DNA from: Planctomycetales bacterium
GTDB lineage: Bacteria > Planctomycetota > Planctomycetia > Planctomycetales > Planctomycetaceae
Assembly (NCBI GenBank): GCA_016235885.1
Contig: JACRIH010000533.1
Location: 1-22,850, forward strand
Direction: 5' to 3'
DNA: 22,850 bases
Shown here: positions 1-22,500 of the stretch, in pieces
Numbering within the stretch: the stretch's first letter is position 1
Layout of the letters: every line of letters starts with the position of its first letter
Notes under the pieces: model-generated
Told to the model about the DNA's origin: nothing
Database searches by the model: none
What the model saw: the letters and a program-made list of their open reading frames with translations, nothing else
Program-made: the position numbers and the translations under genes

Positions 1-46
1 CCTGCCTTTGAAGCAGTGAATGGAGGTTCGATTCCTTCTCCCCGAA
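1..46 (+). tRNA. tRNA-Gln (anticodon TTG), 5' end cut by the window edge
   Basis: Anticodon stem-loop ctgc-CTTTGAA-gcag with U33. T-arm GGAGG-TTCGATT-CCTTC. Acceptor 3' strand tctccccga. No encoded CCA. Confidence 0.7.
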
Positions 47-91
47 CTTGCGAACTTGCGACTGGCAGCGTGTGTCAAATGTCGCGAACAC

Positions 92-166
92 TCCGGGGCG
101 GTTGCTGCTGGTAGCAACGTCTGGCTCTGAACCAGAAGGTCGTTGGTTCGATTCCAACCCCCGGAA
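92..166 (+). tRNA. tRNA-Gln (anticodon CTG)
   Basis: Acceptor tccgggg/ccccgga is fully complementary. Anticodon arm tctgg-CTCTGAA-ccaga. T-arm GTTGG-TTCGATT-CCAAC. Length 75 nt. Confidence 0.8.
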
Positions 167-170
167 TTGA

Positions 171-243
171 AGGCAGAAGGATGAAATCGCTCGTGACCCC
201 AACCACTCGCCAAACGTTCATCCTTCATCCTTCTGCCTTTTTT
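171..243 (+). terminator. Inter-tRNA hairpin followed by a T5 run (terminator-like or processing element)
   Basis: 15-bp perfect inverted repeat aggcagaaggatgaa / ttcatccttctgcct (171-185 and 224-238) with a 38-nt loop. Followed by ttttt immediately before tRNA-Ser. Confidence 0.35.
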
Positions 244-329
244 GGAAGTCATCCGGCCGGATGAGGGACCTGTCCCGAAAACAGGTGGCGAGTTGAACTC
301 GCTTGTGGGTTCGAGTCCCACGGCTTCCG
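244..329 (+). tRNA. tRNA-Ser (anticodon CGA), class II with long variable arm
   Basis: Acceptor ggaagtc/ggcttcc. Anticodon arm cctgt-CCCGAAA-acagg. Variable-arm hairpin gcgag-ttgaa-ctcgc. T-arm GTGGG-TTCGAGT-CCCAC. Position 33 reads as C, which is atypical. Confidence 0.65.
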
Positions 330-519
330 CTGAACAAGGGCTCATGGTCCAACAGCAAGACGTCGGTCCTGCAAACCGGAGATTCGGGTGCAACTCACGG
401 TGGGTCCATTTTGAAGAGTTGAAGAGTGAAGGGCGAAGGGTGGAGGGCGAAAACAAAGTTGGGCAACCACGTCGTGGTACGCTTCGTGTTTTTCATTCTT
501 CTCACTTCACTCTTCATCC

Positions 520-591
520 GGTCCCGTGGTCCAGCGGCGACGACTTCTGGCCTACACCCAGACAACGATGGTTCGAGTCCATCCGGGATCA
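520..591 (+). tRNA. tRNA-Val (anticodon TAC)
   Basis: Acceptor ggtcccg/cgggatc (one G-U pair). Anticodon arm tctgg-CCTACAC-ccaga. T-arm GATGG-TTCGAGT-CCATC. 3-bp D-stem; C at position 33. Confidence 0.65.
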
Positions 592-599
592 TATTGATT

Positions 600-673
600 G
601 TCCTCGCGGAGCAGCTCGGAATGCTCGCCACCCTGTCACGGTGGAGACGTGGGTTCAAATCCCATCGAGGACG
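600..673 (+). tRNA. tRNA-Asp (anticodon GTC)
   Basis: Acceptor gtcctcg/cgaggac. D-stem gagc/gctc. Anticodon arm ccacc-CTGTCAC-ggtgg. T-arm GTGGG-TTCAAAT-CCCAT. Confidence 0.8.
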
Positions 674-696
674 TTTGGTGATGTGATATGTGATTC

Positions 697-778
697 GCGT
701 CGGCTGGGCATCGGCGTGCCCAAGTGGCCGTAACCCACCCGCCTTCGGGCAATGCAGGTTCGACTCCTGCTCGACGCA
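697..778 (+). tRNA. tRNA-Tyr (anticodon GTA), long variable arm
   Basis: Acceptor gcgtcgg/tcgacgc. D-stem gggc/gccc. Anticodon loop CCGTAAC. Variable arm gcc-ttcg-ggc. T-arm GCAGG-TTCGACT-CCTGC. Confidence 0.65.
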
Positions 779-785
779 TTGTTTC

Positions 786-858
786 GGCCCGTTCGTCTAT
801 TGGTACAGGACGCCAGCTTCTCACGCTGGCAAGGCGAGTTCGATTCTCGCACGGGTCA
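786..858 (+). tRNA. tRNA-Glu (anticodon CTC)
   Basis: Acceptor ggcccgt/acgggtc. D-arm gtctattggtacaggac resembles canonical tRNA-Glu. Anticodon arm ccagc-TTCTCAC-gctgg. T-arm GGCGAG-TTCGATT-CTCGC. Confidence 0.8.
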
Positions 859-938
859 TCTACGAGTATTTGTGTAGCCCCTGCCCTCGTGGCCGGCACA
901 AGGCCGGCGGCTACGACGGCCAGATTGATGGAAGATTC

Positions 939-1021
939 GACCGAGTGGTGAAATTGGTAGACACGCGACGCTCAGAACGTCGAGCCGTCAAGGCATGGGA
1001 GTTCGAGTCTCCCCTTGGTCA
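939..1021 (+). tRNA. tRNA-Leu (anticodon CAG), class II
   Basis: Acceptor gaccgag/cttggtc. D-arm tggtgaaattggtagacac is typical of tRNA-Leu. Anticodon arm cgacg-CTCAGAA-cgtcg. Variable-arm stem gcc/ggc. T-arm GGGAG-TTCGAGT-CTCCC. Confidence 0.85.
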
Positions 1022-1106
1022 TCGTTATCGACGCAGGTGAGCCAGTGCTCAGCCGAGGCTCATAACCTCAGCCCGCCGGGTGCGACCCCCGGACCTGCCA
1101 CTTGCC

Positions 1107-1176
1107 GTAGGTCAGGCTTTCCAGCCTGACTCGTTGGGCTGTCAACACACAGGTCAGGCTGGAAAGCCTGACCTAC
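1107..1176. repeat. Nested-palindrome (BIME-like) element between tRNA-Leu and tRNA-Ser
   Basis: 24-bp arms gtaggtcaggctttccagcctgac / gtcaggctggaaagcctgacctac are exact reverse complements with a 22-nt spacer. Each arm also contains its own 8-bp palindrome gtcaggct..agcctgac. Confidence 0.6.
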
Positions 1177-1190
1177 GACAAGATCCTCTC

Positions 1191-1276
1191 GGAAGGTAGC
1201 CGGATACGGTTGGCCGGGCCGCACTGCTAACGCGGCTCTCGTCACTGAGATGAGGGTTCGAATCCCTTGCCTTCCG
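1191..1276 (+). tRNA. tRNA-Ser (anticodon GCT), class II
   Basis: Acceptor ggaaggt/gccttcc (one G-U). D-stem ccgg/ccgg. Anticodon loop CTGCTAA. Variable-arm stem tctc/gaga. T-arm GAGGG-TTCGAAT-CCCTT. Confidence 0.75.
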
Positions 1277-1380
1277 CTGAATGTTTGTTTCGTGACATGG
1301 TGTTCGTGGTGTACCGGTGTGCATGCGACTCTGTGAAAGTCGAGGCGGTGGGTTCAACTCCCCTCGAACACCCTGCTGTG

Positions 1381-1490
1381 AATGATGAATTTCGAATGAC
1401 GAATGACGAACCGGCACCGATGCCGTTCGAGCATTCGACATTCGTCATTCTTTCGTCATTCGGATTTCGTCCTTCGTCATTCCCCCACAG
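1381..1490. repeat. Inverted blocks of tandem decamers GAATGACGAA ... TTCGTCATTC (copy 1)
   Basis: Left block gaatgacgaatgacgaa; right block ttcgtcattctttcgtcattc...ttcgtcattc, in opposed orientation. Lies immediately upstream of the HNH gene start. Confidence 0.7.
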
Positions 1491-1497
1491 GTGCATC

Positions 1498-2091
1498 ATG
1501 TCGGCGGTTCTTACTCGACCAACGCTCGTGCTCAACCGGAACTGGCAACCGGTGGGTGTGGCCTCGGTGTCGCGCTCGCTGATCCTGTTGTGGAACGACA
1601 ACGCGCGCGTGGTCGATCCGGCGGACTTCCGGCTGTACACGTGGAGCGATTGGTCGCGAATGATTCCGCTCGCGGATGAACCGTTCATCCAGGCGGTTCG
1701 GTCGCGGCTGCGGGTGCCGGAAGTGATTTCGCTGACGAACTTCGACCGCGTTCCGATGAACGGGGTGACGTTCAGCCGGCGGAACATTTATCGGCGTGAC
1801 CGTTACACGTGTCAGTACTGCGGTTCGCAGCCGGGGAGCGAAGAACTGACGATCGATCACGTCCTGCCGCGGGCGCAGGGGGGAACTTCGATGTGGGAGA
1901 ACTGTGTTCTCGCATGCGTCGCTTGCAACAAGCGCAAGGCCGACCGCACGCCCGAACAGGCGCACATGCCGCTGCACAAGCGGCCGGTTCGTCCCTCATG
2001 GAAGCCGCACTACGCCACGCGCGGAGTCCGGATCGACAGTTGGTCCCGCTTCCTCAGTGAAGCGTATTGGAATGTGGAACTGAATGCGTAG
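1498..2091 (+). CDS. HNH endonuclease (COG1403 / McrA-like), 197 aa
   Basis: Translation starts MSAVLTRPTLVLNRNWQPV, the N-terminal motif typical of this family. C-terminal motif CQYCGS...LTIDHVLPRAQGG...WENCVLACVACNKRK has the C-X2-C...DH...N...C-X2-C arrangement. AGGTG lies 7 nt upstream of the ATG. The long ORF in the track begins inside the repeat/tRNA region and was trimmed. Confidence 0.85.
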   Translation: MSAVLTRPTLVLNRNWQPVGVASVSRSLILLWNDNARVVDPADFRLYTWSDWSRMIPLADEPFIQAVRSRLRVPEVISLTNFDRVPMNGVTFSRRNIYRRDRYTCQYCGSQPGSEELTIDHVLPRAQGGTSMWENCVLACVACNKRKADRTPEQAHMPLHKRPVRPSWKPHYATRGVRIDSWSRFLSEAYWNVELNA

Positions 2092-2109
2092 CGGAAAGCT
2101 TTCAGCAAT

Positions 2110-2171
2110 CAGCGGTCAGCGATCAGCCAATCGGTTGAGGCTGACTGTTGAAAGCTGATCGCTGACCGCTG
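2110..2171 (+). terminator. Long hairpin downstream of the HNH gene
   Basis: 18-bp perfect inverted repeat cagcggtcagcgatcagc / gctgatcgctgaccgctg around a 26-nt loop. There is no clear U-tract, so function as a terminator is uncertain. Confidence 0.35.
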
Positions 2172-2175
2172 CCAC

Positions 2176-2245
2176 ACGAGTGTGCTCCTGGGAGAGCCAG
2201 TGGTCTCCAAAGCCGCTTCATGAGGTTCGAATCCTCACACTCGTG
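2176..2245 (+). other. Degenerate tRNA-like element (possible tRNA pseudogene or integration-site remnant)
   Basis: Perfect acceptor pairing acgagtg/cactcgt and canonical T-arm TGAGG-TTCGAAT-CCTCA. No canonical anticodon arm can be folded, and the element is only 70 nt long. Confidence 0.4.
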
Positions 2246-2248
2246 CTG

Positions 2249-2296
2249 TTGGAGTCCCGGCTTCAGCCGGTCTGCCGCCTGAAGGCGGGACTCCAA
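2249..2296 (+). other. Compact three-way-junction structure following the tRNA-like element
   Basis: Outer stem ttggagtc/gactccaa encloses two hairpins, ccggc-ttca-gccgg and ccgcc-tgaa-ggcgg. Confidence 0.35.
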
Positions 2297-2299
2297 CCT

Positions 2300-2373
2300 G
2301 CCGACGTGGCTCGACTGAGAAAGGCATCTGTCCCGTAAACAGACTCATGCTGGTGCGAATCCAGTCGTCGGCT
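2300..2373 (+). tRNA. tRNA-Thr-like (anticodon CGT), non-canonical D-arm
   Basis: Perfect acceptor gccgacg/cgtcggc. Anticodon arm tctgt-CCCGTAA-acaga. T-arm GCTGG-TGCGAAT-CCAGT (G at position 54). D-arm cannot be folded canonically and position 33 is C. Confidence 0.5.
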
Positions 2374-2394
2374 CTTGGTTCAAAGTTTGTTTTG

Positions 2395-2512
2395 GGAGTG
2401 CTCCGGCTTGACGGAGCTTTGGAATTTTTTGCGAAGCACTTTCGCCATCCTATAGAAACGGAAAGAAAGTCGCTCCGCGACAATTCCAAAGCTCCGTCAA
2501 GCCGGAGCACTC
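2395..2512. repeat. MITE-like palindromic element with 32-bp perfect terminal inverted repeats
   Basis: ggagtgctccggcttgacggagctttggaatt (2395-2426) is the exact reverse complement of 2481-2512. Interior carries hairpins gcgaa..ttcgc and GTCGCTCCGCGAC. This element generates the mirror-image ORFs 2347..2598 (+) and 2235..2672 (-). Confidence 0.75.
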
Positions 2513-2518
2513 CAAAGT

Positions 2519-2589
2519 TGCCCTGCGGGTGTGCCGGAAGCATGACAGACTTCGAATCTGTCGGACGAGGTTCGATTCCTCGGTGGGGT
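2519..2589 (+). tRNA. tRNA-Arg-like (anticodon TCG), weak acceptor stem
   Basis: Anticodon arm acaga-CTTCGAA-tctgt. T-arm CGAGG-TTCGATT-CCTCG. Acceptor gccctgc/gtggggt needs three G-U pairs and the D-arm is poor. Followed by tttttt. Confidence 0.45.
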
Positions 2590-2599
2590 GTTTTTTGAA

Positions 2600-2670
2600 C
2601 GTCCTCGGAGTGTGGTGGATGCATGCGACCGTGCGAAGGTCGAAGATCAGGTTCGACTCCTGACGGGGAC
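2600..2670 (+). tRNA. tRNA-Arg-like (anticodon reads GCG, unusual)
   Basis: Acceptor gtcctcg/cggggac. Anticodon arm cgacc-GTGCGAA-ggtcg. T-arm TCAGG-TTCGACT-CCTGA. D-arm has G-U pairs; anticodon GCG is not a standard bacterial Arg isoacceptor. Confidence 0.45.
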
Positions 2671-2719
2671 ATCCGTGTTCGATCCGTGTTTCATCCGTGG
2701 CAAAAAAACAATTCCTCCC

Positions 2720-2791
2720 GACGCTGTTGCCGGATGGTCCGGCCACTGTCTGCAAAGCAGTTCTTCGTGGGTTCGATTCCCACCGGCGTCT
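2720..2791 (+). tRNA. tRNA-Cys (anticodon GCA)
   Basis: Acceptor gacgctg/cggcgtc. D-stem gccg/cggc. Anticodon arm actgt-CTGCAAA-gcagt. T-arm GTGGG-TTCGATT-CCCAC. Confidence 0.8.
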
Positions 2792-2801
2792 TCAAGGAAA
2801 A

Positions 2802-2842
2802 GTAGGGTGGGACCAGCTCGCGAAGCGAGTGCAGGCCCACCA
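2802..2842. repeat. REP-like unit GTAGGGTGGGAC..GAAGCG..GGCCCACCA (single copy)
   Basis: Same motif order as the palindromic dimer at 8206-8290. Contains a ctcgc-gaa-gcgag hairpin. Confidence 0.55.
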
Positions 2843-2992
2843 TTGCCGAGATGATGATTCGTCATGACCAGACACGAGCAATTTCAAGCAAGGTTGACGC
2901 AGCCGGGCCAGCGGCGCATCAAGACCTGTCCTGTTCGCAGGCGGTTGTCCGAATGTGTTCCGCGAGTGGGTTCTAACGAAGGCTGTGTCGGC

Positions 2993-3065
2993 GAGTGGTT
3001 AGCTCAGTGGGTAGAGCACCAGACCGTGAATCTGGCTGTCACAGGTTCGACTCCTGTACCAACTG
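2993..3065 (+). tRNA. tRNA-His-like (anticodon GTG), imperfect acceptor stem
   Basis: Perfect D-arm agctcagtgggtagagc. Anticodon arm ccaga-CCGTGAA-tctgg. T-arm ACAGG-TTCGACT-CCTGT. The acceptor strands gagtggt/accaact have two adjacent mismatches. Confidence 0.5.
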
Positions 3066-3480
3066 CGGTGTGAAAAACCGCTCCAAAACGCGAAAGCGTT
3101 TACCAACCGGCCCGACGGTGGCGGGCGAATGATTGATCTGCGGATGCTTCGTTGATGTGCTCTCGTAATTGAGTGCTGCTCGACGTCGGCCGAAAGGCTG
3201 GCGGATGAGTCAGCGGATTGCGGGCCGTGCATCGCGAACATCGGCAACGTGACGGTTTGCTTTGCAGGGCGTGGATTCAGCCATCGCAAATTTCGGACAG
3301 ACGGTCGTGGATGCTGGTCGGACGCTCGCGTGACATTTGTCCGCGAGCGACAAAACCAGACGAAGCGACCGAACCTCCGCAGCTCGCGATGGCTCAAACG
3401 TCTCTCCGCATCCCGGCGCGGGATTAACAATCGTTTCGCCACCTGACGGCAATTCAACTTCCTCTCCACAGCGGGGGAGA

Positions 3481-3660
3481 GGACGGGAGTGGGGAATGAC
3501 GAATTCCGAATGACGAATGACGAATGAATGACAAAGCTCGAATGACGAACACGAGCCTTCACTTCGAGTTCACTGCCTGAATGCGTCACCGGCGAATTCG
3601 GCATTCGGCATTCGTCATTCGGAATTCATTCGTCATTCGTGCTTCCGCCATTCGTCATTC
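3481..3660. repeat. Inverted blocks of tandem decamers GAATGACGAA ... TTCGTCATTC (copy 2)
   Basis: Left block has four or more gaatgacgaa-like units; right block has cattcgtcattcg units in opposite orientation. Upstream of the SPFH gene. Creates the HSSFVI-repeat artefact in the minus-strand ORF 2999..3604. Confidence 0.7.
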
Positions 3661-4897: not shown

Positions 4898-4995
4898 GCG
4901 GCTACGTAGCCATCACGCTCCGCGTGATGAGCCGAATGGCCAATCGACGTCGCATCCCGATTCGGCTCGTCACGCGGAGCGTGACGGCTACGTTA
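4898..4995. repeat. Nested-palindrome element with CGCTCCGCG core (family copy A)
   Basis: Left arm ggctacgtagcc-ATCACGCTCCGCGTGAT-gagccgaat. Right arm attcggctc-GTCACGCGGAGCGTGAC-ggctacgt. The arms are imperfect reverse complements and each arm is itself palindromic. Confidence 0.65.
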
Positions 4996-5787: not shown

Positions 5788-5853
5788 GTAGCCACGCTCG
5801 CCAAGAGCGTGGGTTTTCCGCGATTTTCCCCACGCTCTTGGCGAGCGTGGCTA
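5788..5853. repeat. 26-bp perfect inverted repeat, nested-palindrome type, upstream of nuoH
   Basis: gtagccacgctcgccaagagcgtggg and cccacgctcttggcgagcgtggctac are exact reverse complements with a 14-nt T-rich spacer. Each arm holds an 8-bp palindrome ccacgctc..gagcgtgg; the left one is followed by gttttcc, giving a terminator-like hairpin. Confidence 0.7.
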
Positions 5854-5892
5854 CCCCGAGATCAATGCGGTTACACTTGGCAAAGGTGAAGT

Positions 5893-8205: not shown

Positions 8206-8290
8206 TGTAGGGTGGGACAAGCGAAGCGCTGGCCCACCAAACGCAAAACATCACGATGGTGGGCCTTCGCTTCGCTTGTCCCACCCTACA
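8206..8290. repeat. Palindromic dimer of the GTAGGGTGGGAC..GGCCCACCA REP-like unit, between nuoK and nuoL
   Basis: tgtagggtgggacaagcgaagcg (8206-8228) is the exact reverse complement of 8268-8290. The inner pair ggcccacc / ggtgggcc extends this to an 85-bp near-perfect palindrome. Confidence 0.7.
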
Positions 8291-10658: not shown

Positions 10659-10667
10659 CAGTTCGTC

Positions 10668-10775
10668 GCCCTGTCGCTCCGCGACAGGAAAGCCGAATGC
10701 ATTTGAGTCATTGTTGTTGAAGACACATTCTGAGTCGTCTGGAAACTTGGCTGTCCTGTCGCGGAGCGGCAGGGC
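10668..10775. repeat. Nested-palindrome element with CGCTCCGCG core (family copy B), between nuoL and nuoM
   Basis: Arms gccCTGTCGCTCCGCGACAGg / cCTGTCGCGGAGCGGCAGggc with one mismatch. Each arm is palindromic. The gccgaatg and ggctac segments are shared with copy A. Confidence 0.65.
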
Positions 10776-10808
10776 TACTTTTCGGATTTTAAGGTAAGAC
10801 CTGTCATC

Positions 10809-14724: not shown

Positions 14725-14817
14725 CCGCTGGCGATCGGGCTTCAAGCTTCCAAGCCGCACGTCCAAGCGTGAGAGGTATTGCATCTCTCGCCCTTGGGCT
14801 TGCCCCAGGGGTTCATT

Positions 14818-14867
14818 GGCTTTTGCACTACTGGAAGTTCTCGCGAAAAGCGAGTAGTGCAAAAGCC
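14818..14867. repeat. Hairpin with CTCGCGAAAAGCGAG core upstream of tatD
   Basis: 15-bp inverted repeat ggcttttgcactact / agtagtgcaaaagcc flanks ctcgc-gaaaa-gcgag. The same core occurs at 2818-2832. Confidence 0.55.
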
Positions 14868-14943
14868 GTTGAACCACCGAGACAAGCTCGGTGGCGTAAC
14901 ATTCACGGCCTCTGAATTTTTGCCGCCGAATTGCATCGCCGCC

Positions 14944-17177: not shown

Positions 17178-17236
17178 GTAGACGGGTCACTCCGTGATCC
17201 GAACTTCCGGTCACGGAGTGACCGGTCTACATTCGC
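17178..17236. repeat. Palindromic element GTCACTCCGTGA-N12-GTCACGGAGTGACCGGTCTACATTCG (intergenic copy)
   Basis: 20-bp inverted repeat gtagacgggtcactccgtga / tcacggagtgaccggtctac with one mismatch. A second copy lies at 21941-21998 inside a coding sequence. Confidence 0.7.
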
Positions 17237-21138: not shown

Positions 21139-21144
21139 ACTGTT

Positions 21145-21355
21145 GCCCCAACGGGGCGCAATTCGATAGCCCAGGGCGCAGCCCTGGGTTGGCAGTTGCA
21201 TCCATCACACGAGCCCCAATGGGGCGCAATATTGGGGATTCCCATATCCTCGACTGCGTCCTCACGCGAATTTCGCCCCGTTGGGGCTATCGCACCAATG
21301 ACCGCCGTTACCCAGGGCTGCGCCCTGGGCTATCGAATCGCGCCCCTTCGGGACT
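21145..21355. repeat. BIME-like cluster of GC-rich hairpins between the DUF1553 and DUF1501 genes
   Basis: 25-bp perfect inverted repeat gatagcccagggcgcagccctgggt (21165-21189) / acccagggctgcgccctgggctatc (21310-21334). Four small hairpins GCCCC-NNN-GGGGC lie in alternating orientation. Confidence 0.7.
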
Positions 21356-21378: not shown

Positions 21379-22500
21379 TCAATCCACAAAAACAAATTCA
21401 TTCAAATTCAACAGCAGCCGGCAAGTGTTGGCCAATCCGTGCTCGCGGGCGTACGTGGTGAGTTCCCGCAGTTCGTCGTCTGTCGGAGGCCGGCTGAGGG
21501 CGAGGCGAAACGCTTGCGTCACCTGTGACAAAATGTCTCCGCCGGGTTTCTCGACTCGGGCGGCGAAATGCTTCGACATGACCACGGTGAGCTGGTTGTT
21601 CAGGAGCGCCAGCGCTTGCAGAGGGGTGATCGTTTGCGTGCGCTTGTCGACCAGCATCGACGGATCGGCGCAGTCGAGCGTGGTCATGAACGGCTGCAAC
21701 TGCGAGCGGACGAGGAACCGGTACACCGACCGGCGATGCGATGCGGGATCGTCCGCGTTGTACAGGTGATATTCGTAGTGCGGCGAGTGCTCGGGCTTGT
21801 CGATCACGAAGTCCTGGAAACTCGGGCCACCGAGCGCGGGGTTGAGCTTGCCGCTGACGGACAGAATCGCATCGCGGATCGCTTCGGCTTCCAGACGCCG
21901 GCGACTTTGTCGCCAGAGGAAACGGTTGTCGGAGTCCAAAGTAGCCGCGTCACTCCGTGACGCGAGTTTCGGGTCACGGAGTGACCCGTCTACATTCGAC
22001 GACTGCCGATACGCCGCGCTCGTCACAATCAGTCGGTGCAGTCGCTTGATCGACTGGCCGCCGTCGCGGAATTCGCTGGCCAGCCAATCGAGCAGTTCGG
22101 GGTGACTCGGCAACTGACCCATTCGGCCGAAGTCGTTCGGCGTGTCCACGAGGCCGTGGCCGAAGTGGTAAAGCCAGACGCGGTTCACGATCGATCGCCA
22201 CGTCAGCGGGTTCTGCGGATCGGTCAGCCACTTCGCGAGGGCGGCACGGCGTGCCCCTTCTGCGTGATCGCTCGGCAGGTTGAATCGAGCCGGCAGCGCG
22301 GCCACCACGGTCAACGCTCCCGGTCCGGCTTCCGCTCCCGGCTTCGTCACGTCTCCGCGCGGCAGGAGGTGAATTGGTCTCGGCTTGCCACCATTCGCTC
22401 CGGTGCCAGAGAAGGCTCCCGAGCCGTGATGGATCGTGCCCGCGAACACGAGGCGCGGCGGAGGCAACTTCGATCCAGCCCAGTTCCAGGCACAACGCAT
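21379..22500 (-). CDS. DUF1553 (PSD1) domain protein, C-terminal part only; appears N-terminally truncated and is possibly a gene remnant
   Basis: LAKWLTDPQNPLTWRSIVNRVWLYHFGHGLVDTPNDFG...HPELLDWLASEF...IKRLHRLIVTSAAYRQSS and the C-terminus LLNLNEFVFVD match DUF1553. There is no PSCyt1/DUF1549 part. Upstream the same frame reaches a stop at 22579-22581, and the other minus frames read as low-complexity sequence. Confidence 0.65.
   Translation of the reverse strand: MRCAWNWAGSKLPPPRLVFAGTIHHGSGAFSGTGANGGKPRPIHLLPRGDVTKPGAEAGPGALTVVAALPARFNLPSDHAEGARRAALAKWLTDPQNPLTWRSIVNRVWLYHFGHGLVDTPNDFGRMGQLPSHPELLDWLASEFRDGGQSIKRLHRLIVTSAAYRQSSNVDGSLRDPKLASRSDAATLDSDNRFLWRQSRRRLEAEAIRDAILSVSGKLNPALGGPSFQDFVIDKPEHSPHYEYHLYNADDPASHRRSVYRFLVRSQLQPFMTTLDCADPSMLVDKRTQTITPLQALALLNNQLTVVMSKHFAARVEKPGGDILSQVTQAFRLALSRPPTDDELRELTTYAREHGLANTCRLLLNLNEFVFVD
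21941..21998. repeat. Second copy of the GTCACTCCGTGA...GTCACGGAGTGACCCGTCTACATTCG element, embedded in-frame in the DUF1553 coding sequence
   Basis: Matches 17178-17236 over about 40 of 46 aligned positions. On the minus strand it is translated as [18 protein letters not shown]. Confidence 0.65.

Follow-up and report, generated by a model that had tools for sequence, protein, structure and literature searches.

REP elements and related systems

The closest described systems are the REPINs and BIMEs of Pseudomonas and the Enterobacteria, which are associated with a RAYT (TnpA-REP) transposase (PMC3116915, PMC3337134; PDB 4ER8). In these systems two palindromic units in inverted orientation are separated by a spacer and form a long hairpin. 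The copies are dispersed and extragenic, a GTAG tag marks the hairpin foot, no target-site duplication (TSD) is present, and a single HUH-Y1 gene is flanked by the same REPs (a REPtron). Di Nocera et al. 2013 (PMC3733652) report REPs of the GTAG and CGTC superfamilies from Planctomyces, Rhodopirellula and Opitutus; the GTAG tag, the classical REP signature, is known there from Planctomyces and Rhodopirellula. Quentin et al. 2018 (PMC6006769) find class 3 of the TnpA-Y1 enzymes in Planctomycetes and Acidobacteria, where the REPs are atypical and lack GT[AG]G, and describe the REPs of subclass 2.4 as "inserted in tnpAREP". The IS200/IS605 elements and PATEs use a Y1 HUH enzyme and subterminal hairpins of single-stranded DNA, leave no TSD and have no need for terminal inverted repeats (PMC6006769).

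The element described here lies between two tRNA genes in the window, the whole 22.85-kb stretch of DNA that was analyzed. It is very probably a REP doublet, similar to a REPIN or BIME, of a GGAGT-tagged, RAYT-associated family. As in the REPINs of Pseudomonas and the Enterobacteria, an inverted pair of palindromic units encloses a spacer and forms a long hairpin; each unit folds on itself and is tagged at its foot, many dispersed copies occur in relatives, inverted doublets lack TSDs, and a single HUH-Y1 gene is flanked by the same REPs, this REPtron being seen in relatives alone. The system differs from those REPINs in that i) the tag is GGAGT(GC) and not GTAG; ii) it is hosted by Planctomycetota and other lineages of the PVC type; and iii) the doublets are often longer. 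With the GTAG and CGTC superfamilies of PMC3733652 the family shares short stem-loops tagged at one end and an occurrence in PVC bacteria. It has neither tag, however, and the element therefore falls outside those two superfamilies, although GTAG REPs coexist with it in the window. Compared with IS200/IS605 and the PATE derivatives, the likeness lies in the Y1 HUH enzyme and the lack of a TSD and, by analogy, in hairpin recognition. There, both end hairpins share one strand and the element carries its transposase along, whereas the GGAGT units are inverted and the RAYT gene appears stationary, as in a REPtron.

No description of the GGAGT-tagged family as such was found in the literature, where the match to GGAGTGC was an unrelated primer only; the string does not occur in the accessible text or supplements of PMC3733652. 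The nearest published record is one entry in Table S1 of PMC6006769 (strain code CaurA01, ABY36092.1), where a REP with the tag GGAGTG, GGAGTGCGGCAGCCATGCTGCCG, is listed next to a TnpA-Y1 gene of subclass 2.2.

The element and its tRNA neighbors

The window is a Planctomycetota-type piece of chromosome with genes for DUF1501 and DUF1553 proteins and nuoH/L/M/N. It carries an array of at least 15 tRNA genes in which an HNH gene is embedded. The element and its surroundings are composed as follows.

2248-2297, + strand: neighboring 50-bp mini-doublet with the same GGAGT tag, GGAGT-CCCGGCTTCAGCCGG / CCGCCTGAAGGCGGG-ACTCC
2300-2374, + strand: tRNA-Thr(CGT), upstream neighbor (ARAGORN; Rfam tRNA, 38.8 bits)
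2390-2394, + strand: outer extension of the inverted repeat, TTTTG (family consensus cTTTG; from the flank consensus of 35 subfamily-A doublets and from repeat extension)
2395-2426, + strand: left REP unit (exact 32-mer, local DNA fold, stem covariation in the family)
2395-2399: tag of the left unit, GGAGT
2400-2405: stem, GCTCCG
2406-2411: loop, GCTTGA
2412-2417: stem, 3' side, CGGAGC
2418-2426: remainder of the left unit, TTTGGAATT
2427-2481, + strand: asymmetric core of 55 nt with two small hairpins
2431-2445: core hairpin 1, GCGAA-GCACT-TTCGC
2469-2481: core hairpin 2, GTCGC-TCC-GCGAC
2482-2513, - strand: right REP unit, exact reverse complement of the left unit
2491-2496: stem of the right unit as read on the + strand, GCTCCG
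2497-2502: loop, TCAAGC
2503-2508: stem, CGGAGC
2509-2513: tag complement, ACTCC
2514-2517, + strand: outer extension, AAAG (family consensus CAAAg; one C is absent in the window copy)
2520-2590, + strand: tRNA-Arg(TCG), downstream neighbor (ARAGORN; Rfam tRNA, 27.4 bits, a partial match below the gathering score)

The 32-mer of the left arm, GGAGTGCTCCGGCTTGACGGAGCTTTGGAATT (2395-2426, + strand), recurs as its exact reverse complement at 2482-2513; no such match appeared in 100 shuffles. The original prediction had placed the arms at 2395-2426 (+) and 2481-2512 (-) in an element of 118 bp with a 54-nt core. Its left arm is correct, the right arm lies one base further on, and the measured lengths are 119 bp and 55 nt. 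Its two core hairpins were recovered, as was the 6-nt gap between the element and the Arg-like tRNA, which starts at 2520. The two mirror-image ORFs that it had dismissed as genes (2347-2598, +; 2235-2672, -) run over the tRNA genes and the palindrome and are therefore spurious.

Beyond the exact arms the inverted repeat continues imperfectly, outwards to 2392-2516 and inwards to give 52-nt arms with 83% complementarity. As single-stranded DNA the arm reads tTTTGGGAGTGCTCCGGCTTGACGGAGCTTTGG, and the element locus bears the arm-type sequence GGAGTGCTCCGGCTTGACGGAGC. The hairpin of the left arm alone folds as DNA with -6.5 kcal/mol; the whole element reaches -50.9 kcal/mol as DNA (z = -12.7) and -85.9 kcal/mol as RNA (z = -12.2). 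In the mini-doublet at 2248-2297 the two arms differ at compensated stem positions.

A strong, GC-containing hairpin between tRNA transcription units might be read as an intrinsic terminator, possibly a bidirectional one, and on the - strand an internal hairpin, GTCGCGGAGCGAC, is followed by TTTCTTTCC. However, on either strand the T-run precedes the large hairpin and A-rich sequence follows it, a geometry on which the terminator reading was rejected. The sole terminator-like site within the element lies on the other strand from the tRNAs, and positions 1-3600 hold 4 such sites against 3.6 expected from shuffles. The chance that termination explains the element is minute.

A dispersed family of tagged hairpins

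The initial 20 nt of the arm served as query for a scan of one genome per species, which gave at least 118 loci in at least 34 assemblies, mostly Planctomycetaceae (Schlesneria, "Planctomyces"). Among the matches listed, some of the other assemblies are Verrucomicrobiota and one is a Pontiellaceae isolate; a few matches are in MAGs labeled Acidobacteriota, Kuenenia, Clostridia or Chitinophaga, labels that are doubtful. Three MAGs have at least 22, at least 13 and at least 13 loci. These copy counts are for other genomes, the host genome being outside the at least 118 loci listed (BLAST of the window). The window itself, in which the extragenic position was checked, has one doublet of the GGAGT family. 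Viral contigs scanned with a 22-mer of the arm gave 0 matches. The earlier notion of a dispersed element was borne out to this extent: the element is one copy of a multi-copy, non-coding, dispersed palindromic repeat family.

The best full-length match among the loci listed (L105) has 83% over 127 nt (BLAST of the window); no near-identical one was found there. Positions 2461-2517, which cover the right part of the core and the right arm, have 95-98% identity to copies in L085, L057, L021, L109 and L001, and the 38 nt at 2391-2428 recur with 100% identity in copies from several other genomes. Perfect repeats had been taken as the mark of a recent insertion. Because the same 38 nt are identical across genomes, a family-wide constraint, the identity of the arms does not date the insertion.

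The conserved module comprises 23 nt, GGAGT-GCNNNG-GCTYGA-CNNNGC. Its 6-bp stem is fully paired in 226 of the 252 instances among the matches listed, with 11 distinct fully paired stems that include TCC/GGA, GGT/ACC, TGA/TCA, TGC/GCA, TGT/ACA, GGC/GCC and GAC/GTC. Over 28 distinct variants the helix is paired in 91.7% of cells as compared to 71.6% after shuffling, a value that none of 500 shuffles attained. The three inner stem pairs change on both sides, slid controls fall to 18-61%, and the tag GGAGT is invariant (28/28 variants). Lone hairpins are also found, for example tttGGGAGTGCTCCG-GCTTGA-CGGAGCACTCCcaaag. Of the 240 family hairpins examined over 789 kb, none has a tRNA within 150 nt, and tRNA-targeting by the family was rejected.

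Doublets and target sites

The matches listed include 72 inverted doublets, with a usual length of 116-198 bp; 35 belong to subfamily A and 30 to subfamily B. Subfamily A has the form cTTTG-unit-TTTGGAA... and measures 80-176 bp with a mode of 141 bp; the window copy, at 119 bp, belongs here. Subfamily B has the form CCT-unit-CCTCC... and measures 157-198 bp. The two arms carry different compensated stems in 17 of the 35 A doublets and 24 of the 30 B doublets (41/65 together). Since the arms of one doublet can have different, individually compensated stems, selection acts on each local hairpin and not on the long helix between the arms.

Target sites were analyzed with k-mers of k = 2-6 at boundary offsets 0-7 against the permutation expectation. 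The TSD that the original prediction proposed to look for was found in none of the 65 doublets (35 A and 30 B), and there was no excess of direct repeats at any boundary. Outside cTTTG/CAAAg the flanking sequence is unconserved. In the window AAAGTT is present at 2383-2388 and again at 2514-2519; it was rejected as a TSD, the right-hand AAAG being part of the family's own CAAAg extension and TT alone remaining as a possible duplication.

TIR-type bacterial MITEs such as Correia and ERIC are intergenic elements of about 100-150 bp with terminal inverted repeats; they have TSDs and a DDE IS origin, and they may be co-transcribed. The element is similar to these in size, inverted repeats and intergenic place, and it had at first been called MITE-like. 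A classical MITE would be a deletion derivative of a DDE IS, moved by cut-and-paste through the 32-bp terminal inverted repeats and leaving a TSD. Repeats that are perfect over 32 bp, a small size, a multi-copy family and the paired AAAGTT are what such an origin might give. Yet neither a TSD nor a parent DDE IS was found: the 65 doublets speak against the former, and the ORF clusters of the 118 listed loci contain no recurrent DDE transposase, the recurrent mobile-element protein being HUH-Y1 only. In addition, the arms are independent hairpins that self-fold and covary, and compensated differences between the arms of a doublet are unexpected if the repeats are recognized as double-stranded ends. 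A MITE origin is very improbable.

Long attC sites, such as the Vibrio repeats, are about 120-140 bp with imperfect dyad symmetry. The element resembles them in both respects, and in some loci several copies are close together, as might be expected of an integron attC-like or other recombinase site. The flanks, however, lack RYYYAAC / GTTRRRY core sites and are not conserved beyond the short extensions; the copies are dispersed over many contigs in both orientations and do not form one-directional cassette arrays; and the linked gene encodes a Y1 HUH enzyme, not an integron integrase. This is the least credible of the explanations considered.

Another, distinct doublet subfamily of 80 bp with the same GGAGT unit is present in L016, L104 and L114 (Verrucomicrobiota and Pontiellaceae assemblies). 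These are non-Planctomycetota PVC genomes, the isolate Pontiellaceae B1224 included. The occurrence of these doublets outside Planctomycetota suggests that the GGAGT family is PVC-wide or horizontally shared.

A RAYT transposase beside the hairpins

ORFs of at least 120 aa from the 118 listed loci were clustered. The clusters were ordinary housekeeping families plus one small HUH-Y1 cluster (L029, L053 and L090), the only recurrent mobile-element-type protein near the repeats among the loci listed. Its HUH motif is NHYH and its Tyr motif YVH[QH]NAV, with an additional WH; these motifs match no row of Table 1 in PMC6006769 exactly, the nearest being 2.1 and 2.8. For the three proteins NCBIfam gives NF047646, "REP-associated tyrosine transposase", with 75-78 bits (E = 6e-21 to 6e-22), just below the curated cut-off of 80 bits, and the match to Pfam Y1_Tnp is weak (up to 23.5 bits). 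The only PDB match is E. coli TnpA-REP (4ER8), in which the HUH and Tyr motifs are aligned; the similarity is distant (E = 0.0045), and the GGAGT-family RAYT has an extra N-terminal segment. In L029, L053 and L090 one hairpin abuts the stop codon and another is located immediately upstream of the catalytic core, which is a REPtron layout. Pairs of arms around longer inserts have either unrelated sequence or the RAYT gene inside.

The original prediction had called for a search for a cognate transposase. One does exist in relatives, beside the hairpins, but it is an HUH-Y1 RAYT and not a DDE enzyme. The window contains no RAYT, tblastn of the RAYT against it giving noise only; the enzyme is presumably encoded elsewhere in the host genome.

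The linkage was also examined in reverse by scanning metagenome contigs with the RAYT protein, which gave 287 relatives, with 80 loci kept. The GGAGTGC tag occurs within 120 nt after the RAYT stop in 37 of 83 loci. Most of the 24 flanks inspected have GGAGTGC-stem-loop-stem-GCTTT(GG) hairpins beside the RAYT gene; four (L139, L147, L149 and L198) have no downstream GGAGTGC tag. Across lineages GGAGTGC is conserved beside the RAYT genes, and stem and loop vary with the RAYT lineage (e.g., GGAGTGCGGCGACTTGTCGCCGCTTTGG). The exact loop of the window copy is found beside the closest RAYT relatives (L130, L134, L136 and L137).

In this RAYT clade, one or more REP hairpins are in frame between a conserved N-terminal segment (LRxRLIExIxxLPxxxL) and the catalytic core (L029, L053, L090, L129, L130, L133, L138, L141, L146, L152 and L182). 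The in-frame REP reads as ...SG(D/V)K(S/P)PHS.... The L130 RAYT has 8 tandem 30-nt copies, translated as ESGVKPPHSR x8.

The same site in related tRNA arrays

The HNH gene is conserved over a wide range (5016 homologues, about 80% identity), and the array with this embedded endonuclease gene (92-3066) is syntenic in many Planctomycetaceae, including L119, L121, L127 and L128. In the closest relative, L119 (HNH 95% identical), tRNA-Trp and tRNA-Thr are near-identical to those of the window and the spacer palindromes are entirely different. No element follows tRNA-Thr there, and the contig runs on into a protein gene, which makes L119 unusable as an empty-site comparison. The window tRNA-Arg(TCG) is homologous to that of L121, L127 and L128. 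In L121 (HNH 81%) it is preceded by a different palindrome; in L127 and L128 (HNH 82-83%) it belongs to a compact, palindrome-free array, Trp-Thr-Arg(CCG)-Arg(TCG)-Arg(GCG), with spacers of 5-43 nt. The contigs L209 (from P0038) and L120 stop at the HNH gene and have no downstream array to compare.

The element is therefore a lineage-specific gain and not a conserved RNA, the related arrays having either short palindrome-free spacers or different palindromes. Conservation in relatives, named at the outset among the observations that would favor a structured RNA, was not found in the spacers of L119, L121, L127 and L128. Insertion into an otherwise intact tRNA spacer, as first proposed, does not describe the site either. 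The window has no tRNA-Arg(CCG) at 2375-2519, and the doublet occupies the slot in which relatives carry that gene, between tRNA-Thr and tRNA-Arg(TCG) (L127, 2254-2344; L128, 865-991). Because the window lacks tRNA-Arg(CCG) at the same spot, the arrays do not form a strict filled-versus-empty pair.

A structured element belonging to the tRNA operon, whether of local origin or a co-opted REP, could act as a processing, insulating or stabilizing hairpin in a polycistronic precursor. Long palindromes do occur in nearly every tRNA spacer of the window and also in L121 and L119, the hairpin is very stable as RNA and stops 6 nt short of the start of tRNA-Arg, and PMC3733652 credits REPs and BIMEs with roles in transcription termination and mRNA stabilization. 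On the other hand, the families of spacer palindromes differ between close relatives and the compact arrays L127 and L128 have none; palindromes are equally dense between ordinary protein genes of the window; and the family elsewhere shows the absence of tRNA neighbors noted above (0/240). No Rfam family matches the element, for which searches at the gathering score and at E <= 1 returned only tRNAs and meaningless miRNA-hairpin matches. With neither conservation at the site nor an Rfam match, a conserved structured RNA was rejected, and a dedicated role in the operon is improbable.

Proposed mechanism and significance

For the REP doublet, the following mechanism is proposed. Two repetitive palindromic units of ~30 nt, inverted with respect to each other, flank the asymmetric 55-nt core. 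The functional unit would be the single-stranded hairpin of each arm, GGAGT-GCTCCG-GCTTGA-CGGAGC, with the tag read 5' to 3' on the + strand in the left arm and on the - strand in the right arm. Recognition of the hairpin and its 5' tag on single-stranded DNA would fall to an HUH-Y1 enzyme of the RAYT type, encoded elsewhere in the genome, which would then cut and rejoin at the hairpin, so that doublets would spread without a TSD. The steps of recognition and cleavage are modeled on E. coli TnpA-REP and on IS200/IS605 as treated in PMC6006769. The window copy would have landed in, or arisen at, the spacer between tRNA-Thr and tRNA-Arg in a chromosomal array and would be co-transcribed with the tRNAs; REP-type palindromes appear to be abundant throughout the intergenic regions of this lineage.

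That GGAGT-tagged REPs are more than passengers is improbable. Three routes can be imagined: i) the in-frame REP hairpin within the RAYT gene could be a self-recognition or autoregulatory device; ii) doublets in the tRNA-array spacers of REP-rich Planctomycetaceae may have acquired a role as hairpins for processing or insulation; and iii) in the window, RAYT activity may have put the doublet in place of the tRNA-Arg(CCG) gene.

The analysis removes a false lead, the element being neither a new RNA gene nor a classical MITE. It adds REPs from beyond the well-studied Proteobacteria; the tag of this family, GGAGT(GC), is unusual, its hairpins clearly covary, and a RAYT clade goes with it. Such a record is useful for the study of REP/RAYT co-evolution. 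It also aids the annotation of Planctomycetota, in which the repeats yield spurious ORFs (e.g., ...SVKPEHS... peptides), and illustrates how tRNA arrays are reshaped by repeat invasion; no general concept is altered.

Other palindromes and tRNAs of the window

Nearly every tRNA spacer of the window has its own long palindrome, as have most intergenic regions further along. Hairpins with a GTAG tag are frequent, with 11 perfect cases against 2.2 in shuffles, and mostly form inverted pairs. Their doublets (1101-1182, 4904-4993, 5788-5854, 8206-8290, 10665-10778, 17178-17230 and 21934-22000) occupy many intergenic gaps, including those between nuo genes, and a single GTAG-tagged unit lies near 2813-2842. 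Compensated differences separate the arms at 4906 and 4968. ORF 21379-22500, which has a DUF1553 match, contains the doublet at 21934-22000.

Two palindromic elements of the window recur in the fetched Planctomycetaceae loci. For the one at 14770-14915 the matches are in L081 (87% over 147 nt), L085 and L037, and for that at 8206-8289 they are in L092 and L099 (82%). From these sequence matches, several repeat families appear to be common to these genomes. The spacer palindromes at 1380-1482, 3494-3660, 2090-2171 and 410-516 have arms composed of short motifs in tandem (repeats of GAATGAC, heptamers of the form CAGCNNT and TGAAGAGT-like units) and do not look like tagged REPs.

Some tRNAs of the array have low or sub-gathering Rfam scores, tRNA-Trp (30.1 bits) as well as tRNA-Arg(TCG), and the tRNA at 338-408 was called by Rfam and missed by ARAGORN. 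Rfam also reports two matches to the Acido-Lenti-1 "sRNA", at 21144-21188 (-) and 21311-21355 (+), an inverted pair 120 nt apart. Each unit resembles a tagged REP-type hairpin, GATAG-CCCAGGGC-GCA-GCCCTGGG, and, judged by its sequence, the Acido-Lenti-1 motif may be a REP family rather than an sRNA.
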